Shown here piece by piece: positions 3,432-44,547 of a stretch of DNA of 64,000 nt. A program made the translations under genes and the position numbers. The stretch is taken from NCBI GenBank assembly GCA_963824705.1, contig CAWGQE010000003.1, positions 562,286-626,285 on the forward strand, read 5' to 3'. Each line of letters starts with the position of its first letter. The first letter of the stretch is position 1. This stretch comes from an uncultured Solirubrobacterales bacterium (GTDB lineage Bacteria; Actinomycetota; Thermoleophilia; Solirubrobacterales; 70-9). Under the pieces are notes generated by a model. That model was not told the DNA's origin and did no database searches. It worked only from the letters and a program-made list of their open reading frames with translations.

Positions 3432-4325
3432 ATGTCCGAGATGCGGGTCAAGACCGCCACCGTCCACGGCCGCTCTGTCTCCTACGTGGAGGTCGGCGAG
3501 GGACCGGTGCTGCTGCTGATCCACGGCATCGCCGGCACATGTGAGAACTGGCGAGAGGTGGTCGAGCCACTGGCCCGCCACCACACCGTGATCGCCCCGG
3601 ACTTCCCCGGTCACGGGGCGTCGGAGGCCGGTAGCGGCGATTACTCGATCGGGTCGCTCGCCAGCGGCCTGCGCGATCTGCTGCTGGCGCTCGGGCACGA
3701 GCGCGCGACTCTGGTCGGGCACTCGCTCGGCGGCGGGGTCGCGATGCAGCTCGCTTACCAGTATCCGGAGATGATCGAACGCCTGGTCCTGCTCTCCAGT
3801 GGCGGCCTTGGCCCGGAGGTGAGCCCGGTCCTGCGCGCCGCCGCGCTCCCCGGCGCCGATCTCTTCATCTCGGTCACGGCGGGTGCCGGCCAGCGGGTCG
3901 GCTCTGTTCTCGGCCGCGGCCTCGCCGCGATCGGCCTGCGCCCCAACGCCGACGTTGCGGAGGTGGCGCGTGGCTACGCCGCGCTCCAGGACGCCGCTCG
4001 CCGCGCCGCCTTCCTCGACACGTTACGCGCGGTCGTGGGCACCGGGGGCCAGCGCGTCGCGGCGGGGGACCGTCTCTACCTGGCCGAAGCGGTGCCGGTG
4101 CTGATCGTCTGGGGCGCCCGCGACTCGATCATTCCCGTCCGCCATGGCGAAGACGCGCACCGGGCGATCCCCGGCAGCCGGCTCGAGGTCTTCGAGGACG
4201 TCGGCCACATGCCGCAGCTGGAGGCGCCGGGACGCTTCATCGCCGTGCTCGAACGCTTCCTGCGCGAGACCGAGCCGGCCCGGTTCGACCGCGAGGAGTG
4301 GCGGGCCCGGATGCGCGCCGCCTGA
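3432..4325 (+). CDS. Alpha/beta-fold hydrolase
   Basis: LLLIHGIAG, the nucleophile elbow GHSLGG and a late H (DVGHMPQLE). The ATG at 3432 is chosen because the ORF-track extension 3078-3431 is antisense to gloA. Confidence 0.85.
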   Translation: MSEMRVKTATVHGRSVSYVEVGEGPVLLLIHGIAGTCENWREVVEPLARHHTVIAPDFPGHGASEAGSGDYSIGSLASGLRDLLLALGHERATLVGHSLGGGVAMQLAYQYPEMIERLVLLSSGGLGPEVSPVLRAAALPGADLFISVTAGAGQRVGSVLGRGLAAIGLRPNADVAEVARGYAALQDAARRAAFLDTLRAVVGTGGQRVAAGDRLYLAEAVPVLIVWGARDSIIPVRHGEDAHRAIPGSRLEVFEDVGHMPQLEAPGRFIAVLERFLRETEPARFDREEWRARMRAA

Positions 4326-6613: not shown

Positions 6614-8549
6614 GTGAGCAGGGATGCCGACAGACCGCGCGCCACCGCGCGCTCCCCGGCGCAGGCGGCGCTCGTCCTCGGCGCGCTCGGGGTTGTCTTC
6701 GGCGACATCGGCACCAGCCCGCTCTACACCGTCCAGACCGTCTTCAACCCGAGCGATCCGCACCCGGTCTCGGCGAACGACCGAGAGCATCTTCGGCGTC
6801 ATCTCACTGATCTTCTGGAGCGTGACGATCGTCGTCACGCTCACCTACGTGCTGCTGGTGATGCGCGCCGACAACGAGGGCGAGGGCGGCATCATGGCGC
6901 TGATCACCCTGATCCGGCGCCGCGCTGTCAGCGGCGGGCGGCGGACGAAGCTGGCGCTGGCGGCGCTCGGCATCTTCGGCGCCTCGCTCTTCTTCGGCGA
7001 CAGCATGATCACGCCGGCGATCTCGGTGCTCTCGGCGGTCGAAGGGCTGAAGGTCGTGCAGCCCTCCCTGGCGCACCTGATCGTTCCGATCACGGCGACG
7101 ATCATCGTCATCCTCTTCGCCGCCCAGCGGCTCGGGACCGCGGCGGTGGGGCGGATGTTCGGACCGGTGATGATCGTCTGGTTCACCGTCATCGGCGCCT
7201 GCGGCATCTCGGGTATCGCGCTCCACCCCGAAATCCTCAAGGCGCTCTCGCCGAGCTATGCCGCTCGGATTCCTCACCGGACATTTCTCGACCGCCTTCT
7301 TCTCGCTGGCGGCAGTCGTCCTGGCGATCACCGGGGCCGAGGCGCTCTACGCCGACATGGGGCACTTCGGCCGGCGCGCCGATCACGCGCGCCTGGCTGC
7401 TGCTCGTCTTCCCGGCCCTGATCCTCAATTACATGGGCCAGGGGGCGCTGATCCTCGGCAACCCGAGCGCCAACATCGCCAGCCCGTTCTTCCTGCTGGT
7501 TCCCGAATGGGGGCGGCTGCCGATGGTCCTCCTGGCGACCGCGGCGACCGTGATCGCCTCCCAGGCGGTGATCACCGGCGCCTTCTCGGTCGCCCATCAG
7601 GCGGTGCAGCTCGGCTACCTGCCGCGACTGCGGATCGCTCACACCTCGAGCGAGACCGTGGGACAGATCTACGTGCCCTGGATCAACTGGGTGCTGATGG
7701 TCTCGGTGCTGATCCTCGTCTTCGCCTTCGAGTCCTCGGCTTCGCTCGCCTTCGCCTTCGGTATGGCGGTGACGGGGACGATCACTATCACCACGCTGCT
7801 CTTCTTCTACATCGTCCGCCATCGCTGGGGGAAACCGCTCTGGCTGGTCGTGGGCGGAGCGGGGGCGCTGCTCACCGTCGACCTTCTCTTCCTCGCCGCG
7901 AACACGACCAAGATCGCGCATGGCGCCTGGCTGCCGCTGCTGATCGCGGTGACGGTGTTCACCGCGCTGACGACCTGGCAGCGGGGACGCGAGCTGGTCA
8001 CCGCCCGGCGCGAAGGGGAGGAGGGCTCGCTACGCGAGTTCGTCGACGCTCTGCACGAGCGGCATCCGCCTCTTCAGAGGGTGCCCGGCACCGCAGTCTT
8101 CCTCAACCGCAACAAGACGACCACGCCGCTGGCGATGCGCGCCAACGTCGAGCACAACCGGATCCTCCACGAGCATGTCGTCATCCTCTCGATCGAGACG
8201 CTGCCCGGTTCCGCAGGTCCCGCCCGCCGAGCGCCTCGCGATCGATGATCTCGGTTACGGCGACGACGGCATCACCCACGTCACCGCCTGCTTCGGCTAT
8301 ATGGAGCAGCCCGATGTCCCGGGCGCCCTGCGCATGGCCGAGCAGGCTGGCCTGGAGTGTCCGCTCGAGGTCGACGAAGCCTCCTATTTCCTCTCGACGA
8401 TCGAGCTGCGGCCCGGCGATGCCCCCGGGATGACCCGCTGGCGCAAGCGCCTCTTCGTCGCCATGTCACATATCACCGCTGACGCGGCCGAATACTTCGG
8501 TTTGCCCCGCGATCGCACGGTGATCATGGGTTCGCTGATCGAGGTCTAG
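6614..8549 (+). pseudogene. kup: Kup-family K+ uptake transporter interrupted by four frameshifts
   Basis: Kup motifs are spread over five frame segments: GVVFGDIGTSPLYT; SLIFW...MRADNEGEGGIMAL; TGAEALYADMGHFG; LNYMGQGALIL...HEHVVILSIETLP; ...IMGSLIEV*. See the finding for details. Confidence 0.8.
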
Positions 8550-8588
8550 GGAGCCCGCGGCGGACCCGGTCCGGCCTCGCCGTACGCT

Positions 8589-9746
8589 GTGGCGATGCGC
8601 GGGCGCGAATGGTCACTTCGCCTCGGGGGCGAGCCGCCCCCGCTCTGGCTCGGCCTGCTGGCGACGCTTGCCGCGGTCGCGGCGAGCACGCTGATCGTCT
8701 ACCTGCTGAAGCCGGTTTCGCCAGTCGTCTCGCTGGGCGTCGTCTACCTGCCGGCGATCCTGGCGATCTCGATCTTCTGGGGGCTGCGTCTCGGCCTGCT
8801 CGCCTCGCTGGCCAGCGTCGTCGCCTTCAACTTCTTCCACATCCCGCCGCTGCACCGCTTCACGATCGGCAGCGATCAGAACTGGGTCGCGCTGGCGATC
8901 TTCGCGATCGTCGCGGTTGGCAGCAGCGCCCTAGCCGGGTTGGCGCGCGCACAGACGCTTGAGGCGGAGCGGCGGCGCGAGGACGCCGACCGGGCCCTGG
9001 TGGAGCTCGCGGCCCTCTCCCGCGAGCGCGACCGAATGCAGGAGGAGATGGTCGAGGCCGAGGCGTTGCGGAGAAGCGATGAGCTGAAGACGGCGCTGCT
9101 GCGCTCGATCTCCCATGATTTGCGCACGCCGCTCACCTCGATCATCGCCGGTGGCACGGCGCTGGGCTCGGCAACGCTCACCGAGGCGGAGAGGGCGGAG
9201 TTGAGCACGGCGATCGTCGCCGAGGGCGACCGGCTCTCGCGCCTGGTCGAGAACCTGCTCGATATGTCACGGCTTGAGGCCGGCAAGGCGGAGCCACACC
9301 GTGAGCAGACCGATCTTGGCGAGGTGCTGGACGTCGCTCGCGAGACCGTCGTCCGCCCCGAGATGGTGAAGCTGGCCCTCGATCCCGCGCTGCCAACCGT
9401 GAGGGCCGACGCCGCTCAGCTCGAGCGTGCCTTCGCCAACCTGCTCGAAAACGCGATCCGGCATGGCGGCGGCAGGCCGGTCACGGTGCGCTCGCGGCTA
9501 GTCGGTGACAAGATCGCGATCCGCGTGGTCGACCAGGGCCCGGGCATACCGGAGAGCGAGTGGGAGCGGATCTTCGAGCCGTTCCAGAGCGGGGCAAACG
9601 GAGTGGGGGGAGGCTCGGGCCTGGGGCTGGCGATCGCCAGGGGCTTTGTCGAGGCCAACGGCGGCGAGATCGCGGTCGAGTCGGTGGTCGGCCAGGGGTC
9701 GAGCTTCGTCGTCGGCTTTCCACGCGGCGAGCGAGCCGGCGCGTGA
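8589..9746 (+). CDS. kdpD: KdpD-type sensor histidine kinase, C-terminal half only (membrane DUF4118-like + HisKA + HATPase)
   Basis: Three to four N-terminal TM helices with AFNFFHIPPLHRFTI (KdpD membrane-domain motif), the H-box SHDLRTPLTSI, and the G-boxes DQGPGI and GSGLGLAI. It overlaps kdpE by 4 nt. Confidence 0.8.
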   Translation: MAMRGREWSLRLGGEPPPLWLGLLATLAAVAASTLIVYLLKPVSPVVSLGVVYLPAILAISIFWGLRLGLLASLASVVAFNFFHIPPLHRFTIGSDQNWVALAIFAIVAVGSSALAGLARAQTLEAERRREDADRALVELAALSRERDRMQEEMVEAEALRRSDELKTALLRSISHDLRTPLTSIIAGGTALGSATLTEAERAELSTAIVAEGDRLSRLVENLLDMSRLEAGKAEPHREQTDLGEVLDVARETVVRPEMVKLALDPALPTVRADAAQLERAFANLLENAIRHGGGRPVTVRSRLVGDKIAIRVVDQGPGIPESEWERIFEPFQSGANGVGGGSGLGLAIARGFVEANGGEIAVESVVGQGSSFVVGFPRGERAGA

Positions 9747-10423
9747 ACGGCGCTGCGCGGGTCCTCGTCTGCGACGACGAGCCGCAGATCCTCCGCGCCC
9801 TCAAGGTCATCCTCCGCGACGCGGGCTATGAGGCGGTCCCGGTTGCCAGCGGCGAGGAGGCGCTCGACAGCGCTTCGGTGAAGCCGCCGGCGGCGGCGAT
9901 AGTCGACCTGATGCTGCCCGACATCGACGGTGTCGAGGTGACCAAGCAGTTGCGCGAGTGGAGCGAGATGCCGATCATCGTCCTCTCCGCGGTCGGGGAG
10001 GAGGAGGCGAAGGTGCGCGCCCTCGCCGCCGGTGCGGACGACTATGTGACCAAGCCGTTCGGGCCCCCTGAGCTGGTTGCGAGGCTCGAGGCCGTGCTGC
10101 GGCGGGCCAAGCCCGAGGCCTCGGAGCCGAAGATCGTCGCCGAGGGCCTGGAGATCGACCTCGCGGCGCGCAGTGTCCGCCGCGACGGCGAGGAGGTGCA
10201 CCTGACGCCGACGGAGTTCGAGCTGTTGCGCACCCTGGCCCAGAACAGGGGTCGGCTGATGACGCACAGCGTTCTGCTGGCCGAGGTGTGGGGGCCGGCG
10301 TATGCGGACGATCTGCAGATCCTCCGCGCTCATGTCGCCAACCTACGCCGCAAGATCGAGCCCCCCGAGGGCCCCCACTACATACGCACCGATCCCGGCG
10401 TCGGCTACCGCTTCGCGGCGTAG
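9743..10423 (+). CDS. kdpE: OmpR-family response regulator KdpE
   Basis: The GTG at 9743 overlaps the kinase stop. Receiver domain (VLVCDDE...DLMLPDIDG...SA...K) plus a winged-helix output domain (LTPTEFELL...GYRF). Confidence 0.85.
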   Translation: MNGAARVLVCDDEPQILRALKVILRDAGYEAVPVASGEEALDSASVKPPAAAIVDLMLPDIDGVEVTKQLREWSEMPIIVLSAVGEEEAKVRALAAGADDYVTKPFGPPELVARLEAVLRRAKPEASEPKIVAEGLEIDLAARSVRRDGEEVHLTPTEFELLRTLAQNRGRLMTHSVLLAEVWGPAYADDLQILRAHVANLRRKIEPPEGPHYIRTDPGVGYRFAA

Positions 10424-10426
10424 CAC

Positions 10427-10446
10427 ATTGTGTATTCAATTGTGTA
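10427..10446. promoter_or_regulatory. Direct repeat ATTGTGTA x2 (12-bp register) plus palindrome GTGTACAC just upstream of the phd-like gene; candidate TA operator/promoter
   Basis: ATTGTGTA occurs at 10427-10434 and 10439-10446, and GTGTACAC at 10441-10448. This is an AT-rich patch within GC-rich DNA. Confidence 0.35.
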
Positions 10447-10450
10447 CACT

Positions 10451-10744
10451 ATGGCAATGGCGAAGACTGTTCCCGTTCGTGAGCTGCGCAGCAACCTCAG
10501 CAGCCTGCTCGATGACGTCAGTGACAGGCGAGATCACGTGCTGGTGACCCGCAACGGCACCCCGGCTGCCGCCCTGGTACCGATCGACGAGTACGAGGCG
10601 CTGGAGGAGACCGCGGAGGTTCTGTCCGATTCCGATGCGCTGGTCGCCCTGGAGGCCGGTCTCGCCGAGATCGGACGCGATGAAACGATCACCCTCGCGG
10701 AGCTTCGTGGCGAGCTGGCGGAACGTCGAGCCGCAGCCGGCTGA
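10451..10744 (+). CDS. Phd/YefM-family antitoxin
   Basis: MAKTVPVRELRSNLSSLLDDV...VLVTRNGTPAAALVPIDEYEAL is the canonical Phd/YefM N-terminus. The start is ambiguous (GTG 10430, ATG 10451 or ATG 10457). Confidence 0.8.
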   Translation: MAMAKTVPVRELRSNLSSLLDDVSDRRDHVLVTRNGTPAAALVPIDEYEALEETAEVLSDSDALVALEAGLAEIGRDETITLAELRGELAERRAAAG

Positions 10745-10747
10745 TCC

Positions 10748-11011
10748 TTGGCGCGACTCGTCCTTGCCCGCCGAGCCCGTCGCGAGCTGCTTGAGCTCAA
10801 CTGGCCACTGATCGACGCGATCGAGGATGCCCTGGGTCTGCTTGAGCCCGACCCGAAAGCCGGCCATGCGCTCCGCGGCAAACTGCGCGGGCTGTACTTG
10901 TTGCGAGTTGGCGCCTACAGGATCCTCTACCAAGTGACCGACGCCGAGCAGACGGTTCGGGTGGCCGCCATCCGCCACCGTGGTGTCGCCTATCGCGCCG
11001 ACCCGCGCTGA
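10748..11011 (+). CDS. ParE/RelE-family toxin
   Basis: 87 aa, TTG start 3 nt after the antitoxin stop. L.G.L.G.Y..RVG.YRI.Y......V.V..I.HR is the ParE/RelE signature. Confidence 0.8.
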   Translation: MARLVLARRARRELLELNWPLIDAIEDALGLLEPDPKAGHALRGKLRGLYLLRVGAYRILYQVTDAEQTVRVAAIRHRGVAYRADPR

Positions 11012-11105
11012 GCCCTGTCGTCGAGCTGCGCGTCTTCACAAAATCTGTATGCGCAGGGGCGCTGAGTTCATGCGCTCTTGATGGGGTCGCACGCATGATC
11101 GGTCC

Positions 11106-11234
11106 GTGCTCTCGGTCCTCGCGGACATCTTCCCCGGCGGCGGCGGTCCCCTCGCCGATGTCTTCTCGATAGCGATCGCCGTCGGCCTCTTCGCCCTCCT
11201 CTACTGGGCGATCGACCTGATCGACCGGGTATGA
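11106..11234 (+). CDS. Unannotated 42-codon single-TM ORF translationally coupled to kdpF
   Basis: GTG start; VLSVLADIFPGGGGPLADVFSIAIAVGLFALLYWAIDLIDRV*. Third codon positions are GC-rich like real genes. Its stop TGA (11232-11234) overlaps the kdpF ATG (11231). It is too short for the ORF track. Confidence 0.4.
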   Translation: MLSVLADIFPGGGGPLADVFSIAIAVGLFALLYWAIDLIDRV

Positions 11235-11344
11235 GCGCGCTGCCTCTAGCCACGCTCTCCGGCGCCGACCTCTTCGGCCTGGTCGTCTCGGCCCTTGTCT
11301 GCGTCTACCTCGTCTACGCGCTGCTGCGGGGGGAGAACCTCTAA
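11231..11344 (+). CDS. kdpF: K+-transporting ATPase subunit F
   Basis: 37 codons, MSALPLATLSGADLFGLVVSALVCVYLVYALLRGENL*. The hydrophobic helix ending in Y.YALLR is KdpF-like. The stop is immediately followed by the kdpA GTG at 11345. Confidence 0.7.
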   Translation: MSALPLATLSGADLFGLVVSALVCVYLVYALLRGENL

Positions 11345-13102
11345 GTGGCGCAGGGCTGGGTGCAGATTGCCGTCTTCGTCGCCGTGCTGGTCGCGCTCGT
11401 CAAGCCGGTCGGCATCTACATGGCACGCGTATTCACCGACCAGCGCGTCTTCCTCAGTCCCGTCGTCGGGCCAATCGAGCGCCTCGCCTACAGGGCGTTG
11501 CGTGTGCGGCCCGATGAGGGCCAGGACTGGAAGGGCTACGCCCGCAGCCTGATCGTCTTCTCGTTGCTCTTCTGGATCGCGCTCTACCTGATCCTGCGCA
11601 CCCAGGGCATCCACCCGTTCAACCCCGAAGGGTTCAAGTCCGCCCCCTGGGACGTCAACTTCAACACGACCTCCTCCTTCGTCACCAACACCAACTGGCA
11701 GTACTACGGCGGCGAAACGACGCTCTCCTACTTCTCCCAGATGGCCGGGCTGGCGGTGCAGAACTTCGTCTCCGCCGCGGTCGGGATCGCCGTCGTCGTC
11801 GCCCTGATCCGGGGGCTCGTCGCCCGCAGCGGGCGGGCGATCGGCAACTTCTGGCAGGACCTGGTCCGGATCCTGCTCTACATCCTCCTGCCGATCTCGA
11901 TCCTCGGCGCCCTCTTCCTCGTCTCCCAGGGCGTGATTCAGAACCTCAGCCACGCCACCGTGATCCACACCGTCACCGGCGGTACGCAGACGCTGGCCCA
12001 GGGCCCGGTCGCCTCGCAGGAGGCGATCAAGGAGCTCGGCACCAACGGCGGCGGCTTCTTCAACGTCAACTCCGCCTTCCCGTTCGAGAACTCGACCGGG
12101 TTGACCGACTTCTTCGAGATGCTGCTGATCCTCGTCATCCCGGCCAGCCTCACCTACACCTACGGGCGCATGGTCGGCAGCCAGCGCCAGGGCTGGGCGA
12201 TCTTCTCGGCGATGGCGGTCCTCTTCGTCGCCGGCGTCGCCGTCGTCTACATGGCCGAGCAGCACGGCACCGTCGCCCAGCACGCCGCCGGCCTCCACAC
12301 CCACGCCTTCGACGGCTCCACCGGCGGCAACATGGAGGGCAAGGAGCAGCGCTTCGGGGTCGCCGATACCTCCCTCTGGACGGCGATCACGACGGTGACC
12401 TCGTGCGGGGCGGTGAACGGCGCCTTCGAGTCATTGACCGGGCTCGGACAGGCGGTGCCCTTCGCCAACCTCGGCTTCAGCGAGGTGATCTTCGGCGGCG
12501 TCGGCGCGGGCCTGTACTCGATGCTGCTCTACGTCATCCTCGCCGTCTTCATCGGCGGCCTGATGGTCGGCCGCACTCCCGAGTACCTGGGCAAGAAGAT
12601 CGGCGCCAGGGAGATCAAGCTGGTTGCCCTCGGGGTGCTGGTCACGCCGCTGTTCACCCTGCTCGCTTCCGGGCTGGCCTCGGCGACCAGGCTGGGGACG
12701 CGATCGATCTACGCCGGCATCAACCCCCAGGGCTTCTCCGAGACCCTCTACGCCTACCTCTCCCAGGCCAACAACAACGGCTCCGCCCTCGCCGGCTATA
12801 CCGGCTTCATCCAGCCGAACGCGCCCGGCAACACCGGCGCCTATGGGATCAGCTTCGCCGACCTGCTCGGCGGCGCGGTGATGGTCGGCGCCCGCTTCCT
12901 GCCGATCCTCTTCGTCCTCGCCGTCGCGGGCTCCCTTGCCGGCAAGAAGGTCTCCCCGGCGGGCCTCGGCACGATGCGCACCGACAACCCGACCTTCGTC
13001 TTCCTCTTGATCGGCGTCGTGATCCTGGTCGGCGCCCTGACCTTCTTCCCGGCACTGCTGCTCGGACCGGTCGTCCAGAGCCTGACCACGAGGTTGTTCT
13101 GA
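11345..13102 (+). CDS. kdpA: K+-transporting ATPase subunit A
   Basis: 585 aa, polytopic, with the KdpA motifs NTNWQ.Y.GE and LGTNGGGFF. Confidence 0.95.
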   Translation: MAQGWVQIAVFVAVLVALVKPVGIYMARVFTDQRVFLSPVVGPIERLAYRALRVRPDEGQDWKGYARSLIVFSLLFWIALYLILRTQGIHPFNPEGFKSAPWDVNFNTTSSFVTNTNWQYYGGETTLSYFSQMAGLAVQNFVSAAVGIAVVVALIRGLVARSGRAIGNFWQDLVRILLYILLPISILGALFLVSQGVIQNLSHATVIHTVTGGTQTLAQGPVASQEAIKELGTNGGGFFNVNSAFPFENSTGLTDFFEMLLILVIPASLTYTYGRMVGSQRQGWAIFSAMAVLFVAGVAVVYMAEQHGTVAQHAAGLHTHAFDGSTGGNMEGKEQRFGVADTSLWTAITTVTSCGAVNGAFESLTGLGQAVPFANLGFSEVIFGGVGAGLYSMLLYVILAVFIGGLMVGRTPEYLGKKIGAREIKLVALGVLVTPLFTLLASGLASATRLGTRSIYAGINPQGFSETLYAYLSQANNNGSALAGYTGFIQPNAPGNTGAYGISFADLLGGAVMVGARFLPILFVLAVAGSLAGKKVSPAGLGTMRTDNPTFVFLLIGVVILVGALTFFPALLLGPVVQSLTTRLF

Positions 13103-13755
13103 TGCGGCGCGACCTGATCACCTCGCTGCTCGCGATCGTCGTCATGACGGTCTTTCTTGGCCTCGTCTACCCGCTGGCGATCACCGGCATCTCCCAGGTC
13201 GTCTTCCCCGGCAAGGCCAACGGCTCCAAGCTGAGCGTCGACGGAAAGATCGTCGGCTCGAGCCTGATCGCGCAGTCCTTTTCGCACCCGGTGCTCGGCA
13301 AGGACGGCAAGCCCGAGCTCGACGAAGAAGGCGAAGAAATCCTCGCTCCGGACAAGGCCTACTTCCAGCCGCGCCCCTCGGCGACCGGCTACTCGGGCAA
13401 CGTCACCTACTTCGGCAACGTCGGCCCGAACTCGGTCGAAGGCCGCGAAGAGGTGCGCGAAAGCCTCGCCTCCTACGTGGCCCTGGAGAAGCCGTTCGAC
13501 CAGGGCCTGAGCAAGGGCCAGATTCCAGTCGACGCGGTGACCCAGTCGGCCTCCGGGGTGGACCCGCACATCTCTGAAGCCAACGCGTCGATACAGGCGC
13601 ACCGCATCGCCGCCGTCCGCAAGCTGCCGCTCGCCCGGGTCGAAGAACTGATCTCCGCCAACACCGACGGACGCTCCCTCGGCCTGCTCGGCGAGCCCGG
13701 CGTCAACGTCCTCGAGCTCAACATCGCCCTCGACAAGGAAGCACCGATCGAATGA
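13102..13755 (+). CDS. kdpC: K+-transporting ATPase subunit C
   Basis: The ATG shares its A with the kdpA stop. N-terminal TM + VYPL...Q..FP..ANGS...F..RPSA...SASG.DP.IS...A..Q...ELN.ALD matches E. coli KdpC along its whole length. Confidence 0.9.
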
Positions 13756-15815
13756 CCTCCGAGACGCAGCCCCGATCCCTCTTCGACCCCGAGATCCTCC
13801 GCCCGGCGCTGCTCGAGTCGCTGCGCAAGCTCGACCCGAGGGTGCAAGCCCGCAACCCGGTCATGTTCGTGGTCGAGATCGGCGCCCTGATAACCACCGT
13901 CGCCTGGCTGATCCAGGTCTTCGGCGACAGCCCGCTCGGCGGTGGCCACGAGCCCTCGTGGTTCACCTTCAGCGTCACCGTCTGGCTCTGGCTGACCGTC
14001 GTCTTCGCCAACCTCGCCGAGGCGCTGGCCGAGGGCCGCGGCCGTGCCCAGGCCGCGAGCCTGCGGGCGATGCGCACCGAGGCGAACGCGAAGATGCGCG
14101 ACGGCAGCGAGAAGTCCGCCGCCGAGCTCGTCCGCGGCGACGTCGTGATCGTCGAGGCGGGCGAGGGCATCCCCGGCGATGGCACCGTGATCGAGGGAAT
14201 CGCCTCGGTCGACGAGTCGGCGATCACCGGCGAGTCGGCGCCGGTTATCCGCGAGGCCGGCGGCGACCGCAGCGCCGTCACCGGTGGCACCAAGGTGCTC
14301 TCGGACCGGATCGTCGTCGAAATCACCCAGGAGCCCGGCAAGTCCTTCCTCGACCGCATGATCGCCCTCGTCGAGGGCGCCGAGCGGCGCAAGACGCCGA
14401 ACGAGATCGCGCTGGGAATCCTGCTCTCGGCGCTGACCCTGATCTTCGTGATCGTCGTCGTCTCGCTGCGCCCCTTTGCCCTCTTTGCCGGCACCGAACT
14501 CTCCGAGACGACCCTGATCGCCCTCCTCGTGGCGCTGATCCCGACCACGATCGGGGCGCTTCTCTCGGCGATCGGGATCGCCGGCATGGACCGCCTGGTG
14601 CGCCGCAACGTGCTCGCCCTCTCCGGTCGCGCCGTGGAGGCCTCCGGCGACTGCGACGTGCTGCTGCTCGACAAGACCGGCACGATCACGCTCGGCAACC
14701 GTGAGGCGGTCGAGTTCATGCCGATGCCCGGTGTCGAGGTTGAGGAGCTGGCCGAGGCGGCGCAGATGTCCTCGCTCTCCGACGAGACTCCCGAGGGACG
14801 CTCGATCGTCGTCCTCGCCAAGACCTTCGGCATCCGCGAGCACACCTTCTCGGGCCACGAGCCCGAGTTCGTCCCCTTCTCAGCCCAGACCCGGATGAGC
14901 GGCGTCGACTACAACGGCACTCGCCTGCGCAAGGGCGCCGGCGACGCGATCGAAGACTGGGTCGCCTCCGAGGGTGGGCGCGCCCCGGCCGAGCTTCGCG
15001 CCGAGCTCGACCGGATCGGCCGCGAGGGGGGGACCCCGCTGGCCGTCGCCCGCAACGAGCGCGTGCTCGGGGTGATCTACCTCAAGGACGTGGTCAAGGA
15101 AGGGATGAGCGCTCGCTTCGACCAGCTGCGGGCGATGGGGATCCGCACGATCATGGTCACCGGCGACAACAAGCTGACCGCGGCGAAGATCGCCGCGGAG
15201 GCGGGCGTCGACGACTTCCTCGCCGAAGCGACCCCGGAGCGCAAGCTGGAGCTGATCAAGGAGCAGCAGTCCGACGGCCGCCTGATCGCTATGACCGGCG
15301 ACGGCACCAACGACGCCCCGGCGCTGGCGCAGGCCGACGTCGGCGTGGCGATGAACACCGGCACCCAGGCGGCGCGTGAGGCCGGCAACATGGTCGACCT
15401 CGACTCCAACCCGACGAAGCTGATCGAGATCGTCGAGGTTGGCAAGCAGCTGTTGATCACGCGCGGCGCCCTGACCACCTTCTCGATCGCCAACGACGTC
15501 GCCAAGTACTTCGCGATCCTGCCGGCGATGTTCGCCACGACCTACGCCATCGGCAGCCACAGCGGGCCGCTCGACGCCCTCAACGTGATGTCCCTGGGGA
15601 CGCCGGAATCGGCGATCCTCTCAGCGGTGATCTTCAACGCCCTGATCATCCCGCTGCTGATCCCGCTTTCCCTGCGGGGAGTTCGCTACCGGCCGATCGG
15701 CGCCACGGGGCTGCTGCGGCGCAACATCCTCATCTACGGCCTCGGCGGCCTGATCGTCCCCTTCGTCGGCATCAAGCTGATCGACCTCGTGGTTCACAAC
15801 CTGCTGGGGGCCTGA
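13752..15815 (+). CDS. kdpB: K+-transporting P-type ATPase subunit B
   Basis: LFDP.I...A...S..KL.P....[11 protein letters not shown] matches the KdpB N-terminus; DKTGTIT, TGDN and [13 protein letters not shown] are present. ATGA overlap with kdpC. Confidence 0.95.
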
Positions 15816-39514: not shown

Positions 39515-39563
39515 GGGAATCTCCTACCCTCGAACGCGGGTGTCTATAGCGGCTGTGACTTTC

Positions 39564-39591
39564 GTCACGTATATCCCATCACTGTAGAAGC
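39564..39591. repeat. Left terminal inverted repeat (28 bp), preceded by TTTC
   Basis: GTCACGTATATCCCATCACTGTAGAAGC is the exact reverse complement of 44181-44208. Confidence 0.8.
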
Positions 39592-39695
39592 GAAATCCGT
39601 CTCTGACGCGCCCTAGCTTCCTTCGCCGTCAACAGAAAAGCGGCCGGGGCGCTGCGTGAACAGCCCCCGGCCTGGCACAGGAAGGGGTACTTCCC

Positions 39696-39980
39696 ATGCA
39701 CGGCAAGGCTAACGGGGCGCGTCCAAAGCGCTCCAATCACGCCCAGGACATCCGCGATCAGAGCATCATGCTCATGCACGTCCTGGCGCTCCATCCAACG
39801 CACCTAATCATCCCCGATCTGGTGCGCGAGCTAATCGGTGATCCCGAGGACTTCGCCGAGGGCGACCGCTACGAGCGAGCGGTCCGTGATCTGACGGGCG
39901 TCGGGCTTCTCCATAGCGAGGGCGGCTTGATCCAGCCGACGCGGGCGGCGCTCCGCTTCATCGAGATTCTGGAGGCGTGA
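39696..39980 (+). CDS. Small hypothetical protein, possibly winged-helix
   Basis: 94 aa; the ATG lies after GGAAGGGG, and its stop lies 1 nt before the XRE gene GTG. The wHTH-like assignment is an impression only. Confidence 0.5.
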   Translation: MHGKANGARPKRSNHAQDIRDQSIMLMHVLALHPTHLIIPDLVRELIGDPEDFAEGDRYERAVRDLTGVGLLHSEGGLIQPTRAALRFIEILEA

Positions 39981-39981
39981 G

Positions 39982-40296
39982 GTGAAGTGCGCTGATCGCT
40001 TCGCCAAGAACCTGCGGCGCTACCGCAGGCGGTCGGGTATGTCGCAGGAACAGGTCGGCCTCCGTGCCCAACTGCACCGGACCGAGATCGGCCTGTTGGA
40101 GCGCGGGGCGCGAGTCCCGCGCATCGACACGCTGGTCAAGATCGCCGCCGCGCTCAACGTCAACCCCGCCGAGTTGTTGGAGGGGATCGATTGGGAGCCG
40201 GGCGAGATCACCGTTGGGCAGTTCATCGAAACCGACGTTCCGGGTCTTGGGATCGTCCATCGCCGGTTTGAGGTTGAGCGTGAGGGCAATGGCTAA
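39982..40296 (+). CDS. XRE-family HTH regulator
   Basis: FAKNLRRYRRRSGMSQEQVGLRAQLHRTEIGLLERG.R.PRIDTLVKIAAAL is the Cro/C1 HTH. Confidence 0.8.
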   Translation: MKCADRFAKNLRRYRRRSGMSQEQVGLRAQLHRTEIGLLERGARVPRIDTLVKIAAALNVNPAELLEGIDWEPGEITVGQFIETDVPGLGIVHRRFEVEREGNG

Positions 40297-40334
40297 CCAC
40301 GGCAGCGGCTCTGTGCTTCATCGAGATCATCGAA

Positions 40335-40376
40335 GGGGCGTTAGCCCGTTCGCCCCGCTTGGGGCGAACGCTTTAA
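40335..40376 (+). promoter_or_regulatory. Hairpin with an alternative pairing between the XRE gene and the membrane-protein gene
   Basis: GTTCGCCCC (40348-40356) / GGGGCGAAC (40361-40369) with loop GCTT, then GCTTTAA. The upstream GGGGCG (40335-40340) could instead pair with CGCCCC (40351-40356). Confidence 0.3.
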
Positions 40377-40379
40377 GCG

Positions 40380-41018
40380 GTGCGACCCCCCCTGACACTG
40401 CACGTCCCGTCGGCCGACGAAAGTGAGACGATAGGTCCTGTGTCGGAACCTGCTGAGTCACCGGCGAATATGCCCATAAAGGGAGGCGACGGTGGGGCAA
40501 CCCAGCTCTCGATCCTCCTCGATGCGGCGACCGCAATCATCGATGAGGAGTTCAAACGCAGCGAACGCCTAGATGCGAAGTCGCGCAACATGATCACGGT
40601 GGCCGGGGCATTCTTCGCGGTCGTTCAGGCCGTCGTGGCCGCGTTGATCAATGAAACGCTTGGTGCGACGGAAACTCAGGCCGCCTCGTCTCTTGTTCCT
40701 TGGCTTGCGGCTGCGGGAGGGATAGCAACGATAGGGCTTGGGATTGCTTTCACTTGGAGCTACGAAGCCTGGAGGCTCCGAAATGACGAAGCGCTCAAGG
40801 TCAAAACGATTCGCGACTACCGAGACGCTGCTTATGCGGGCAATCCAGCCGTTGGGGCGAAGCTCGTTGATGCCTACGCGAAAATTGCCGATGATCGCCG
40901 GGCAGTCAATGCGGAGCGAGCCGTCGCTGTCGATAAGGCTGCGATAGCTTGCGGGATCGCAATGCTTCTAATCGGTACTGAGCTAGTCCTAGCGTTCATC
41001 GCGGTCGCCATTCGGTGA
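40380..41018 (+). CDS. Hypothetical 3-TM membrane protein (candidate effector)
   Basis: 212-aa ORF. An amphipathic helix (IIDEEFKRSERLDAKSRNM) runs directly into TM1 and TM2, followed by a ~60-aa helical region and a C-terminal TM. The start is uncertain (GTG 40380 or ATG 40470). Confidence 0.6.
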   Translation: MRPPLTLHVPSADESETIGPVSEPAESPANMPIKGGDGGATQLSILLDAATAIIDEEFKRSERLDAKSRNMITVAGAFFAVVQAVVAALINETLGATETQAASSLVPWLAAAGGIATIGLGIAFTWSYEAWRLRNDEALKVKTIRDYRDAAYAGNPAVGAKLVDAYAKIADDRRAVNAERAVAVDKAAIACGIAMLLIGTELVLAFIAVAIR

Positions 41019-41905
41019 ACGGCGAGGATCTGCCCGATCCCGCCGACAAAGAACCGGATCTGCCCCCTCCGGAGTTCGAGCCAATCCGAAATTTCGCTGG
41101 CCTGCCAGCTCGCATACGACGACTAGTCGATGACGGCCTTTTCGTTGCTCTTGGCAGGTCGGAAGACAACGCGATCCGAGTAGGGACTCTCTGGGGCTTG
41201 CTGGAGCACCTAGACAAGCTCTTTCATGCGGTTCAGGTGAATAAGTCTGGATCGGACGTCAATCGGCGTGGCGCACTCGCGGCAGTGACGGGGGGGCGGG
41301 AACTGGAGGCACTTCCGTCTCTGCATGGCAGTTATGCGCTCCCACTGCGTTTGACGCCACCCGATGGTCAGATGGTTGGGCAGGAGTACCAGGAGCTAGA
41401 CGCTCTGATCGATCTGTTGGCACCCACCACGGATCTAGAGGAGATGCTTCAGGAGCTACCAGAGCGCATCGGCGACGAGCTGCGAAGACTCTTTGCAGTC
41501 TTGGCAAGCGGTGACACTGGCCTGCGGATGGAACTGGTTCGAAATGGGCAGGCCGTAACGGAGGTTGAGGTTAGGGCTGATGAAGCGCAGTCAAAAGCTG
41601 CTTGGCTCAACGAAAAGACGCCACACGACCTAGGGACGAAAACCCTCCGAGGCAAGCTGTTCCGAATCGACACGAAGAAGAAGGAAATCCGAATCGATGT
41701 CATCGGTGGCACCGATGGCGAGCTGGATGTAGAGAGCGCCATCTTCCAAGATGAGCAACTGGACGAGCTTCGAGAGGCTCTGAATCACCAAGTGGAGATG
41801 GAGGTGTCCGTGTCTGAGGATCGCCGCCCCTACGAACGCTCCGTGACTAGTCCTACGCTCCGTGTCGGTTGGGTGCGTCGGGTCGAGGGCGAGGGCGTGA
41901 ACTAA
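41015..41905 (+). CDS. Hypothetical 296-aa soluble protein, translationally coupled to the membrane protein
   Basis: The GTG at 41015 overlaps the upstream stop (GTGA). I recognise no motif. Confidence 0.6.
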   Translation: MNGEDLPDPADKEPDLPPPEFEPIRNFAGLPARIRRLVDDGLFVALGRSEDNAIRVGTLWGLLEHLDKLFHAVQVNKSGSDVNRRGALAAVTGGRELEALPSLHGSYALPLRLTPPDGQMVGQEYQELDALIDLLAPTTDLEEMLQELPERIGDELRRLFAVLASGDTGLRMELVRNGQAVTEVEVRADEAQSKAAWLNEKTPHDLGTKTLRGKLFRIDTKKKEIRIDVIGGTDGELDVESAIFQDEQLDELREALNHQVEMEVSVSEDRRPYERSVTSPTLRVGWVRRVEGEGVN

Positions 41906-42058
41906 GCCTCGTCGGCGACCAACTCCCGCGTAGGCCAAAATCTCGCCCTCGATCATCCGCATCCTTAAACTCAGCACAGATGGCCGATCGCAAGCAGAAG
42001 ACGAACAAGGGACTCGAGATCCCGGTCCCGACTAAAGGCGACTTCGACGCTGCTGTGT

Positions 42059-42262
42059 CTAAGGTCGCTCCGCCAGCAGGTCGTAAACGCCCTGGCGGGA
42101 AAGACCAGCCTCCAAAGCGATCTGAGTGACCGGGACCCCAGCATCCTGCGCTTCCTTGCAGTAGCGCCGTAGTTCGTCCGTCGCTTTGTGGCGGGCGGCA
42201 TCGGCCCGCTCGCGGCTCTTGGCGGCTCGCCGGATGCCCTTGATTGCGGCGGCGTCTTTCAT
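42059..42262 (-). CDS. Small HTH protein coupled to the transposase
   Basis: 67 aa; ATGA overlap with the transposase stop. The C-terminal VTQIALEAGLSRQGVYDLL looks like an HTH. Confidence 0.5.
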   Translation of the reverse strand: MKDAAAIKGIRRAAKSRERADAARHKATDELRRYCKEAQDAGVPVTQIALEAGLSRQGVYDLLAERP

Positions 42263-43206
42263 CGCGGAGAGCGAGCAGCGTTGTCGAGCAGGGCGAAGAA
42301 CATCCCCCGGCCGTCGCGGCGTTGGTTGTAGCGCCAGGCGTACTCGTCCAGGTAGGACTGAAGCCATTTCTGCGACACCTTCTTGTAGGTGCCGCGCATC
42401 CCGGTCTTGAGGTTGCCGAAGAAGCCCTCAATCGTGTTCGTGTGGATATCGCCGTGGACGTAGACGCCCGCCGAGTGGTTGATGATGCTGTGGCCTGCGT
42501 ACTCCCGGCCAAGCGGCCGGTAGGAGCGCCAGTCGTCCGTGAAGATGATCGATTGTGGGTTGACGTTCGCCCGCACGGCTCCACTCAGCGGCTCGCCTCG
42601 ACGGGACTTGATCACGCGCAGCTTGACCCGCCCGCCACGCTCGACCATGCCCAGCACCGAGACCTGGCGCTCGCGCCACTGAGCAGCTTCTTTTTTGGTC
42701 ATTCGCGGCCCGCGTGGGCGACCGTGGACGCCGGTCTCGTCAACCTCGACCTTGCCCTTCAACGGCTTGGCGTCGTCCTTCATCAACTCGTTGCGGATCT
42801 TGTTGAACATGCGCCAGGCGGTCTTGTAATGAACCCCAAGCTCTCGCTCTAGCTGTTTCGCGGATATGCCGCATCGCGTACTCGTCATCAAGTACATGGC
42901 GTAGAACCAAAGCTGAAGCGAGGTCGAGGACTTGTGAAAGATCGTGCCGGCCGTGGGATGCACGTGGTGCCCGCAGCCGGTGCAGGTCCATGACTGCCGC
43001 CCTTGCTTGGTCGCGTAGCGCTTGAAGACCCGCTCAGAGCCGCATTTGGGGCAGTAAGCGTGTTCTCCGTCCGGGGAATGCCGAGTGCGCCATAGATGCT
43101 CCAGGCAGGCGGCATCGTCGGGGAAGTCCCGCAGGAACTCCGTAACCGAATAGTCCGAAGTCGAGGACTTCGCTCGGCGCGGTTCGTGGCGGTTGGCAGG
43201 TGGCAT
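42259..43206 (-). CDS. IS1595-family (ISXO2-like) DDE transposase
   Basis: N-terminal zinc ribbon CPKCG...CTGCGHH, then VEVDETGVHG, IIFTDDWRSY and NTIEGFFGNLKTGMRGTYKKVSQKWLQSYLDEYAWRYNQR. Confidence 0.9.
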   Translation of the reverse strand: MPPANRHEPRRAKSSTSDYSVTEFLRDFPDDAACLEHLWRTRHSPDGEHAYCPKCGSERVFKRYATKQGRQSWTCTGCGHHVHPTAGTIFHKSSTSLQLWFYAMYLMTSTRCGISAKQLERELGVHYKTAWRMFNKIRNELMKDDAKPLKGKVEVDETGVHGRPRGPRMTKKEAAQWRERQVSVLGMVERGGRVKLRVIKSRRGEPLSGAVRANVNPQSIIFTDDWRSYRPLGREYAGHSIINHSAGVYVHGDIHTNTIEGFFGNLKTGMRGTYKKVSQKWLQSYLDEYAWRYNQRRDGRGMFFALLDNAARSPR

Positions 43207-43212
43207 AGTGTA

Positions 43213-43241
43213 AAGTTACTTGACACAAGATCATTTGTCAA
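43213..43241 (-). promoter_or_regulatory. Candidate promoter giving a leaderless transposase mRNA
   Basis: On the minus strand: TTGACA (43241-43236), a 17-nt spacer, TAACTT (43218-43213), 6 nt, then ATG at 43206. A second TTGACA faces the other way (43220-43225), and the two form the palindrome CTTGACA-N10-TGTCAAG. Confidence 0.45.
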
Positions 43242-43264
43242 GCAGCTTTACGAAGGGATGGCGA

Positions 43265-44131
43265 ATGCGGGAGGAAGCACCATCGCTGGATAGTGCTTTT
43301 GAAAAGCTGAGGCGAGGACTAGAGCACTTCAACTCGATTGAGCAAGCGAGCGACGTCGCAGTCAAAGCGAGCGCCAAGGCCCCATTTGTCGAAGACGATG
43401 GCGACTGGAAAGTAGTCGGTATCAGTCTCGGGAAGTTCCCACTCCGCCCCAGCATTATCTCGGGGGACATGGTCCACAACTTGCGCTCCGCTCTTGATCA
43501 TGCGGTTTGGCAGCTGGTCAAGGTCTCCGGGGGTCAGCCGGGAAGCTGGACCTATTTCCCAATTTATGGGAACAAGGACGGCTTCATCAACGATGTCCAG
43601 CAACGGGCCAAGAAGCGAGGTCTCGGGCCGCTGCATGGGATTGAAAAGGGCGGCCCGATATGGACACTCATCGAGAAATATCAGCCGTACAAGAACACCC
43701 AGCTCCCACCTTGGTTTAAACCGCCTCCCGCAGATCCGATCAAGTGGGCGGCGCGTCTGACGCCGCTGGCGACGCTGAGTGCGCTCTCGCGAATCGACAA
43801 GCACCGAACGATCCACGGTTTCAACGTCTTCCCCGCGAGAGGCAAAGCGATCAACGACAGCATCAGATGGAATCCGGACGCCATATTGGTCGAGCAGCGC
43901 GGAGGGCATTCCTTTGACGTGCTCGAAGGTCGCGCAGAGCTTGCGCGGTTCCGCTTCCGGCCCGGCGTCGAGCCAAATGTGCGCGTGACCGGACCAATGT
44001 TCTTGGAGGCAGGATTTGAGGCTGAGTTCAGTCCCGGCGAAAGAATCACCGTCCTCTCTGACGGAATCAAAGCGATGGGTGCAGCCGTCGAAGGGATACT
44101 GACCTCCTTCAAGGAGTTCTTCCCCGAGTAG
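43265..44131 (+). CDS. Hypothetical protein with an Rx4H motif (possible HEPN-like)
   Basis: The ATG at 43265 lies after GAAGGGA. The motif is NLRSALDHAVWQL (R-x4-H), followed later by LSRIDKHRTIH. Confidence 0.5.
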   Translation: MREEAPSLDSAFEKLRRGLEHFNSIEQASDVAVKASAKAPFVEDDGDWKVVGISLGKFPLRPSIISGDMVHNLRSALDHAVWQLVKVSGGQPGSWTYFPIYGNKDGFINDVQQRAKKRGLGPLHGIEKGGPIWTLIEKYQPYKNTQLPPWFKPPPADPIKWAARLTPLATLSALSRIDKHRTIHGFNVFPARGKAINDSIRWNPDAILVEQRGGHSFDVLEGRAELARFRFRPGVEPNVRVTGPMFLEAGFEAEFSPGERITVLSDGIKAMGAAVEGILTSFKEFFPE

Positions 44132-44180
44132 ATCGTCGGCGCGCTCAGCCACCGCCTAGATCGCCCCTCCGAGCCGCTGA

Positions 44181-44208
44181 GCTTCTACAGTGATGGGATA
44201 TACGTGAC
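44181..44208. repeat. Right terminal inverted repeat (28 bp), followed by TTTC
   Basis: GCTTCTACAGTGATGGGATATACGTGAC. Confidence 0.8.
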
Positions 44209-44328
44209 TTTCGTCACTTAGGCAATTTACAGCGCCCACGCTGGCCTGGCGCAATTTGACTCAGAGGTGTCGCAGAAGATTTTGGTTCCGAGCGACACTC
44301 GCGACGCCGCAATCTTTAGGGTGCAATC

Positions 44329-44547
44329 ATGGAGACCATGAGAGAGAGTTGGACCGACGCGCGGCTGGACGACATGAAGCAGGGGATGGATGCTGGCTTC
44401 AAACGGATGGACGAGGACATCAAGGGCTTGCGGACGGAAATGAACCAGCGCTTCGACGGTTTGAATCGAACGCTGCTGCAGATCAGCGGTGGCGTCATCG
44501 CGACCCTGATCGCTGGATTCATGGGCTTGATAGCGACGCAGCTCTAG
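44329..44547 (+). CDS. Small tail-anchored coiled-coil protein
   Basis: 72 aa: a charged helical N-part (RLDDMKQGMDAGFKRMDEDIKGLRTEMNQRFDGLNR) and a C-terminal TM (ISGGVIATLIAGFMGLIATQL). Confidence 0.45.
   Translation: METMRESWTDARLDDMKQGMDAGFKRMDEDIKGLRTEMNQRFDGLNRTLLQISGGVIATLIAGFMGLIATQL

Follow-up and report, generated by a model that had tools for sequence, protein, structure and literature searches.

A membrane protein and a remote PDC-M63B homologue paired as transposon cargo in Thermoleophilia: a candidate conflict module

Do two overlapping genes on a mobile island of an uncultured Solirubrobacterales bacterium form an uncharacterised conflict or defence system? The stretch that was analysed, called the window here, is the 64,000 nucleotides of assembly GCA_963824705.1 (contig CAWGQE010000003.1, positions 562,286 to 626,285 of the forward strand), and coordinates without a locus name are positions in this window. 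The pair consists of a small membrane protein (gene 1) and a soluble, acidic protein (gene 2). An earlier note, made from the letters alone, had named the pair as a candidate system and compared it with Kiwa and with the transmembrane (TM) effectors of Pycsar- and CBASS-type systems. The idea of a conflict or defence system stood as the most likely reading, on the strength of kinship to the defence candidate component PDC-M63B, a DUF6575-like fold and carriage as transposon cargo, whereas the named analogies fell away.

Gene 1 and gene 2 as a conserved pair

The two open reading frames (ORFs) and their GTGA overlap at 41015-41018, which is common to the stop of gene 1 and the start of gene 2, exist as first described, according to the ORF list and the sequence. 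Gene 1 and gene 2 are real genes and not chance ORFs, because each belongs to a family of homologues, the pairing is constant and Ka/Ks is low. The closest relative (L015) has 84% identity for gene 1 and 79% for gene 2. Against it, Ka/Ks was 0.09 and 0.11 for the two genes at Ks ~1, and by this comparison both genes are under purifying selection (Ka/Ks ~0.1). The earlier note had proposed to look at the co-occurrence of homologues, and every locus with a relative of gene 2 was found to have a relative of gene 1 immediately upstream, usually with a 4-bp overlap. Gene 1 homologues at 31-36% identity (L034, L035, L036, L038 and L040) are also followed directly by an overlapping ORF of ~320 aa. 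These partner ORFs tie to the gene 2 family by BLASTP via P0175, P0176 and P0184, all of which were found by the gene 2 profile. As far as these sequence relationships go, the pair is an old, co-inherited unit.

The number of homologue clusters for gene 1 was 120-156 (about 156 in the profile search). The gene 2 family has 27 close homologues and 53 representatives; its profile search over 1.84 billion proteins gave 53 representative clusters at E <= 1e-3, with 17 of them at E <= 1e-30. The gene 1-gene 2 family is nevertheless rare and lineage-restricted. A scan of ~185,000 species genomes, which was pattern-based and may undercount, found seven loci, all of them in metagenome-assembled genomes of Solirubrobacterales or Conexibacteraceae. 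No match to the DNA of the island was found in the plasmid collection. Decayed copies were found in L013 (9584-10597) and L037 (9926-10939), where only the first ~54 residues of gene 1 are left and gene 2 is broken into two frames. These remnants indicate that the pair is dispensable.

The longest open form of gene 1, used in the earlier note, is an ORF of 212 aa with a GTG start (40380..41018, + strand). This frame is open, but the true start is probably the GTG at 40440, giving 192 aa, so that the 212-aa form would be over-extended at its N-terminus. The later start was favoured because members of the family alignment are mostly 191-192 aa long and because VSEPAESPANMPIK aligns without gaps to MSERSESPANMPIQ of P0029. 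The annotation of the source genome starts gene 1 at ATG 40470 and gives 182 aa (P0028). With the GTG start, gene 1 (40440..41018, + strand) is a 3-TM membrane protein by family alignment, hydropathy and an AlphaFold2 (AF2) model (pLDDT 89.8; helices 6-61, 76-101, 111-122 and 126-181). Kyte-Doolittle windows and the model agreed with the layout read by eye in the earlier note. TM1 continues a charged amphipathic helix, a short loop on the outside leads to TM2, and a helical segment of ~60 aa separates TM2 from the C-terminal TM3. Both this segment and the amphipathic helix at the N-terminus are predicted to lie on the cytoplasmic side. The family conserves a charged collar at the cytoplasmic face of the membrane, with EEFKRSERLDAKSRN preceding TM1 and DRRxxNxxR preceding TM3. 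Polar residues are also kept within the membrane, namely Q53 in TM1 and E171 in TM3 (P0028 numbering).

Scans of Pfam, PADLOC, NCBIfam and PHROG gave no meaningful match for gene 1. Searches of PDB sequences with the single sequence and with a profile returned nothing, the PDB fold search gave generic helical matches only (best E 0.4), and the family profile search found no annotated remote relatives. Some weak matches of family members were treated as noise from TM composition. These were 8xMP (PF24838), found in 13 of 39 members with a best value of 8.5e-5 and below the gathering score, MgtE and further TM families, and 'Rv2743c family' in four members.

Gene 2 (41015..41905, + strand, GTG start, 296 aa) was defined by its ORF, its AF2 model and profile comparison. 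It is soluble and charged, as had been noted, with 36 K+R against 56 D+E, a maximum KD19 of 0.71 and no hydrophobic segment. The model (pLDDT 83.5, pTM 0.73) has an alpha/beta domain at ~30-200 and a C-terminal OB-fold at 202-290, which is a classical one of five strands, with a helix inserted between the third and the fourth. An acidic, Pro-rich N-terminal tail (~residues 8-30) has low pLDDT and is disordered in the model, yet it is conserved in the alignment. Two motifs are conserved in the OB-fold, GKLFRIDTKK at beta1-beta2 and E[ED]RRPYER in the beta4-beta5 loop, and the modelled fold may bind a ligand or nucleic acid at these positions. Like gene 1, gene 2 had no meaningful match in Pfam, PADLOC, NCBIfam or PHROG and none in PDB sequence searches, whether by single sequence or by profile. 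The PDB fold search matched the OB-fold part only, to SSB and SilF/CusF-like proteins with weak E-values and TMt ~0.7.

These searches also decide on the analogies of the earlier note. Kiwa and the window pair are alike in sizes and order only: in both, a small TM protein comes first and a soluble one of ~300 aa second. No KwaB/DUF4868 match was found in Pfam or PADLOC for gene 2 alone or for 39 superfamily members, and its PDB folds are those of the OB-fold only. KwaA was not matched in PADLOC by gene 1 or by 39 family members at E <= 0.1. As regards a Pycsar, CBASS or SLATT effector, gene 1 alone and the 39 members gave only the sub-threshold 8xMP and MgtE matches in Pfam and PADLOC, and no annotated locus has a nucleotide cyclase or CD-NTase (SMODS) gene adjoining the pair. 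That the pair is a divergent Kiwa, or gene 1 a TM effector of the Pycsar, CBASS or SLATT type, would draw on the sizes, the gene order and the TM helices, and against this absence of matches we consider it hardly credible.

Relatives of gene 2 and the exchange of partners

At profile level only, and by sequence comparison, gene 2 is remotely homologous to PDC-M63B. The weak-scoring end of its profile search (P0183, P0185, P0187, P0189, P0194 and P0195) consists of full-length PDC-M63B members, with PADLOC E-values down to 1.8e-15. An hhalign comparison of the gene 2 family with a PDC-M63B-like set gave a probability of 99.25% and an E-value of 5.5e-20 over ~211 columns. PDC-M63 is listed in PADLOC-DB v2 as a 'phage defence candidate' with components A and B and is a computational candidate only. 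Like the window pair, it has two overlapping genes and a B protein of ~300 aa, and PDC-M63B shares the motifs RG, GS[FY], R.G and G.L with gene 2. The two differ in the partner. PDC-M63A, encoded upstream with an overlap, is a soluble DUF6932 protein, whereas the partner in the window is an unrelated 3-TM protein. The A protein of the PDC-M63 loci matches PDC-M63A (1.8e-14) and Pfam DUF6932 (1.3e-24) and has a minimal nucleotidyltransferase motif, NGSF...PGDVDIVL. Neither PDC-M63A nor DUF6932 was matched in Pfam and PADLOC by gene 1 alone or by members of its family.

A fold search of BFVD pointed to a second relation. The whole of gene 2 matched a phage 'DUF6575 domain-containing protein' (266 columns, TMq 0.59, E 7e-13), and two further uncharacterised phage proteins matched its fold. 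DUF6575 is the N-terminal domain of PD-T4-10B. PD-T4-10 of E. coli ECOR65 is a toxin-antitoxin (TA)-like abortive-infection (Abi) system against T-even phages, with two overlapping ORFs, in which B is toxic, A neutralises B and A could not be deleted (Vassallo et al. 2022; PMC9519451). The likenesses to the window pair are the overall fold, which DUF6575-class B proteins share with gene 2 in BFVD, and the location of both on mobile elements. The ORF sizes are similar too, with an A+B region of 1,604 bp in PD-T4-10 (~530 codons, with B ~353 aa from the length of the PADLOC model) and proteins of 192 and 296 aa here. No match to the DUF6575 domain was found in gene 2. The domain is present in one of 39 superfamily members, P0195, where it is joined to a PDC-M63B-type body. 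The link between gene 2 and PD-T4-10 is a structural and transitive one, drawn from models, and it is not proven.

The A partners of the DUF6575-type proteins from a Pantoea plasmid, from phiPV83 (orf62) and from an Arthrobacter plasmid are small, soluble proteins with the motif PP..FP...G.vYR, unlike the membrane protein of the window. The DUF6575 pair of phiPV83, an S. aureus prophage, lies in a moron region beside lukM/lukF and attP. On the Arthrobacter plasmid pA58H3 (L048), an unannotated ORF of 138 aa at 3561-3977 shares 4 nt with the start of the DUF6575 gene and has the same motif; from this it is probably a missed PD-T4-10A-like gene.

A gene 2-type body was thus found with DUF6932 proteins, with soluble PD-T4-10A-like proteins or with gene 1. 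Gene 1-like proteins at 46-49% identity, for their part, are followed in L051 (10001-14133) and L031 by an overlapping protein of 1173 aa. Helical repeats and a metallo-beta-lactamase motif (ATHDHPDH) were seen in this large partner, and its N-terminal tail is acidic and Pro-rich, similar to the tail of gene 2. The L051 protein was tested for a gene 2-like module and none was found; the combination may be an uncharacterised system of its own, with the membrane partner in common. Swapping of partners on both sides is a pattern typical of conflict systems.

Transposon carriage and genomic setting

The earlier note had placed the pair inside a mobile island, and this island proved to have defined ends. 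It spans 39555-44217 and has a GC content of 0.57-0.64, compared with >= 0.67 in the flanks. Its edges coincide with the drop in GC and are formed by a 37-nt inverted repeat (39555-39591 and 44181-44217, 89% complementary). The outer 14 nt of the left repeat, GTGACTTTCGTCAC, are palindromic, and the inner 23 nt, GTATATCCCATCACTGTAGAAGC, match the complement of the right end without a mismatch; the right repeat was located by repeat search and by reading the sequence. The terminal repeat motif is unique in the window, with 0 matches expected by chance. Between the repeats lie, in this order, a small ORF, an XRE-family gene, gene 1, gene 2, a gene for a 67-aa helix-turn-helix (HTH) protein, an IS1595 transposase and a 303-aa ORF, and no inner repeat pair around the transposase alone was found within the island. 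The island is a 4.66-kb transposon-like unit of the IS1595 family with passenger genes.

The first four of these genes form a cargo that is carried by at least three different transposons, two of the IS1595 type and one of the DDE_Tnp_1 type. In L015 the same four genes stand beside a different IS1595 transposase, which has 35% identity to that of the window. This second element is enclosed by 29-nt repeats unrelated to those of the window, with GGGG-type ends and a perfect 8-bp duplication, GCTTCCCG. Since the repeats and the duplication enclose both cargo and transposase, they are direct evidence that the two moved as one unit. A target duplication of 8 bp is what is expected of the IS1595 family. 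The ends of the window element have no clean 8-bp duplication, and the 14-nt palindrome GTGACTTTCGTCAC stands there in direct orientation (39555-39568 and 44204-44217). From its sequence, the palindrome could be an unusually long target duplication or belong to the inverted repeat; a palindromic target of which 4 bp (TTTC) are duplicated is a third possibility.

The third carrier has the ends CTAG[T/G]AGGG[A/T]TTGGCGAAA, which enclose the small ORF, the XRE gene, a DDE_Tnp_1 transposase, gene 1 and gene 2, so that the cargo lies on both sides of the transposase (L018, 8037-11649; L049, 8002-11634). A 4-bp target duplication may account for the CTAG found at each outer end. The right end of this element also occurs ~100 nt past gene 2 in L003 and L004 (L003, 10994) and in L001 (11040), and this type of carrier was seen in four lineages. 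The matches to the ends have 1-2 mismatches, and ~1 chance match would be expected over 692 kb at <=4 mismatches. The L001 copy, which lies between valS and clpX, is free of a transposase and has kept the solo right end.

Passenger-carrying (transporter) insertion sequences (IS) of the IS1595 family resemble the window element in having a DDE_Tnp_IS1595 transposase and terminal inverted repeats around transposase and passengers. The window element differs from them in its two-gene, conflict-type cargo with regulators and in that the same cargo is also found on an unrelated DDE_Tnp_1 transposon. Cargo that lies inside the terminal repeats of three transposon types, with an OB-fold that could bind single-stranded DNA, might be expected to serve transposition itself, with gene 2 as a DNA-binding protein and gene 1 as its membrane tether aiding or regulating the process. 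It is unlikely, though, that three transposases (two IS1595-type ones that are 35% identical and one DDE_Tnp_1) would share a dedicated cofactor. Selection keeps copies that have no transposase, and the PDC-M63 and DUF6575 relatives lack such an association with transposons. We therefore regard a role as a transposition accessory as very improbable.

The surroundings of other copies were also compared. The earlier note had suggested looking for defence neighbourhoods, and one lineage (L005, L006 and L007, ~8300-14800) has the pair in a defence island, between a type III restriction-modification system (ResIII and N6_N4_Mtase) and DUF4238. The same island further holds an OLD-like AAA_15/TOPRIM ATPase and an RNase_H_2-helicase. 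Unannotated ORFs of 104 aa and 221 aa were seen immediately 3' of gene 2 in these loci. Another copy of the pair is located 7 kb from Cas3. A distant pair, with gene 1 at 33% identity, was found in L044 (9001-10477; 24 contigs of 50-200 kb) in a phage-like region whose neighbouring genes include SSB, NERD, a sigma factor, a T5orf172/SNIPE nuclease, HNH, RecA and ThyX. The L044 contig may be from a phage or another large mobile element. A Guanylate_cyc-domain gene lies ~1.2 kb upstream of this pair, with another gene in between.

Several copies are found among housekeeping or metabolic genes, and one is followed by the gene of an ECF sigma factor. Such settings would agree with an accessory function outside conflict, for example a membrane-associated stress or signalling pair that is borne by transposons as a small, self-contained adaptive cassette. 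The lack of a direct match to any defence model and the weak, sub-threshold matches of some members to 8xMP and Rv2743c agree with it too. The distribution, however, is very patchy (the seven loci of the genome scan, with its possible undercount), some copies are pseudogenes, and the 'housekeeping' copy of L001 retains a transposon end. Remote kinship to PDC-M63B and to DUF6575 systems on prophages and plasmids, the swapping of partners between systems and the defence island of one lineage also speak against a non-conflict function, which we consider quite unlikely.

Two HTH regulators upstream of the pair had been proposed in the earlier note, and one of them was recovered. The gene at 39982..40296 (+ strand) encodes an XRE-family HTH regulator of 104 aa (Pfam HTH_3 4.7e-13 and HTH_31 5.4e-12; PADLOC 'control protein' 1.9e-15), with homologues at 54-64% identity upstream of the pair in L003, L015 and L018. 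The other, an ORF of 94 aa at 39696..39980 (+ strand) that is the first gene of the cargo, is conserved in position and had no match in Pfam, PADLOC, NCBIfam or PHROG. In L015-17 and L018/19 its homologues, at 39-44% identity, likewise precede the XRE gene, and the sequence of the ORF suggests a possible winged-helix regulator. A 23-nt direct repeat, GCGGCnCTnnGCTTCATCGAGAT, has two copies in the repeat search, where 0 were expected (39945..39967 and, between the XRE gene and gene 1, 40305..40327, both + strand). The copies bracket the XRE gene and are candidate operators for the cargo regulators. A promoter scan found no sigma-70-type promoter, and terminator-like sites were no commoner than in shuffled sequence.

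The remaining genes of the element were annotated as follows. A small HTH protein of 67 aa, read from ATG 42262 (42059..42262, - strand; PHROG 686 'HTH DNA binding protein' 3.7e-7), is coupled through an ATGA overlap to the stop codon of the transposase gene. The transposase itself is an IS1595-family DDE enzyme of 315 aa (42259..43206, - strand; Pfam DDE_Tnp_IS1595 4.4e-36), and its match to Zn_ribbon_IS1595 (3.9e-5, 24.0 bits) is just below the gathering score of 25.4. An orphan passenger ORF of 303 aa (43220..44131, + strand; ORF list) is assigned to the element because it starts 13 nt from the start codon of the transposase. It had no match in Pfam, PADLOC, NCBIfam, PHROGs or the PDB, and no homologue in any fetched locus. 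Positions 42019-42121, between gene 2 and the small HTH gene, are 78% identical to 9693-9798 of L020, which lie upstream of gene 1 on the opposite strand, and a relative of the 67-aa HTH protein is also present upstream of gene 1 in L020. This similarity suggests a possible rearrangement, between elements, of a small cassette that carries the regulator. An ORF of 72 aa (44329-44547, + strand) lies immediately beyond the right inverted repeat; it has a hydrophobic C-terminal tail and no family match, and the contig index has no record of its exact product.

A possible conflict module

The pairing and the carriage by transposons, both read from sequence, suggest a TA-like or anti-phage function. 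We propose that gene 1 and gene 2 are the functional core of the four-gene cargo and make up a TA-like, abortive-infection-type conflict module in which the gene 2-type (PDC-M63B-like) body is the constant part. This proposal is plausible but falls somewhat short of probable. It is favoured because of the homology to PDC-M63B, the likeness to the DUF6575 fold, the defence island of one lineage and the transposon cargo. Constant pairing, purifying selection, the swapping of partners, the dispensability and rarity of the pair, the phage-like setting of the distant pair and the copy near Cas3 also back it. Further features in its favour are the conserved collar and intramembrane Q53 and E171 of gene 1 and the conserved tail of gene 2.

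The proposed module would work as follows. The XRE and small-ORF regulators would repress the operon and hold expression low. Gene 2 would be a cytoplasmic sensor or regulator, and its acidic, Pro-rich tail would dock on the basic collar of gene 1 (EEFKRSERLDAKSRN and DRRxxNxxR). The OB-fold motifs GKLFRIDTKK and E[ED]RRPYER would bind a trigger, which could be nucleic acid or another ligand. Upon this trigger, oligomers of gene 1, with their intramembrane Gln and Glu, would conduct ions, and the resulting depolarisation would arrest growth. Gene 1 would be the toxic partner.

The roles could also be reversed. Gene 2 would then arrest growth and gene 1 would be a membrane-anchored neutraliser that sequesters it, and the pair would serve mainly to addict cells to the transposon or stabilise it, with an anti-phage effect coming second. 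Tn3-family transposons that have a TA pair as an integral part have been described. The cargo here is embedded in three transposon types and flanks the transposase on both sides in the DDE_Tnp_1 type. The gene order and the 4-bp overlap match the usual layout of type II TA systems, in which the neutraliser comes first, and an XRE regulator is associated with the pair. PD-T4-10 provides a precedent, as its B protein is toxic and its neutralising A protein could not be deleted (PMC9519451). That precedent is weakened by the absence from gene 2 of DUF6575, which is possibly the toxic domain of PD-T4-10B. The pairing of gene 1-type proteins with an unrelated 1173-aa protein is hard to square with a specific antitoxin, membrane-protein antitoxins are unusual, and copies free of a transposase persist (L001 and L002). 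We consider reversed roles unlikely, if still a serious alternative to gene 1 as the toxic partner.

Several results count against a conflict module with gene 1 as its pore. The family of gene 1 and gene 2 has no experimental support. Taken alone, the window proteins reach no model of PADLOC (PDC-M63B included), Pfam, NCBIfam or PHROG, and none of the known pore-forming effectors is related to gene 1 in fold. No relatives of gene 1 or gene 2 were found on viral contigs, and the copies between housekeeping or metabolic genes described above belong on this side as well. PDC-M63 was without a phenotype in one native-host test, in E. coli NILS69 (bioRxiv 10.1101/2024.12.20.629700). Single-sequence hhalign comparisons of gene 2 with DUF6575 proteins of Pantoea, phiPV83 and Arthrobacter, used as related proxies for PD-T4-10B (RCO36088.1), gave E-values of 0.012-0.27, which are not significant, with a consistent register. 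Finally, the second gene of PD-T4-10 is the toxic one and the first is neutralising, which is the opposite of the roles proposed here, yet PD-T4-10B has DUF6575 and gene 2 does not.

A more far-reaching claim would be that the pair is a new anti-phage or Abi system of a modular superfamily. Such a superfamily would combine a PDC-M63B-type sensor with swappable partners (the 3-TM pore, the DUF6932 nucleotidyltransferase or a PD-T4-10A-like protein), and the pair would be the dedicated cargo of at least three DDE transposons in Thermoleophilia. This is possible, though on the whole we doubt it. What is new here is best described as a PDC-M63B-type core whose partner is a membrane protein, repeatedly carried by three different DDE transposons.

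If the pair is inert or has no part in conflict, what is left is an ordinary result, a composite IS1595 element that is well delimited and carries passenger genes. If the pair is functional, PDC-M63, which is unvalidated, and PD-T4-10, which is validated with an opaque mechanism, would gain a common core made of an alpha/beta domain and an OB-fold. This core would be shown to work with at least three unrelated partners, giving a handle on what it senses or does, and a membrane-protein branch would be added from a poorly studied actinobacterial class. Small DDE transposons, two of the IS1595 type and one of the DDE_Tnp_1 type, would be seen to carry the same regulated conflict module repeatedly, which bears on how defence and addiction genes move in genomes that are poor in plasmids or prophages. 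Should the pair be a new anti-phage system, simple elements of the insertion-sequence kind would be vehicles for immune genes.

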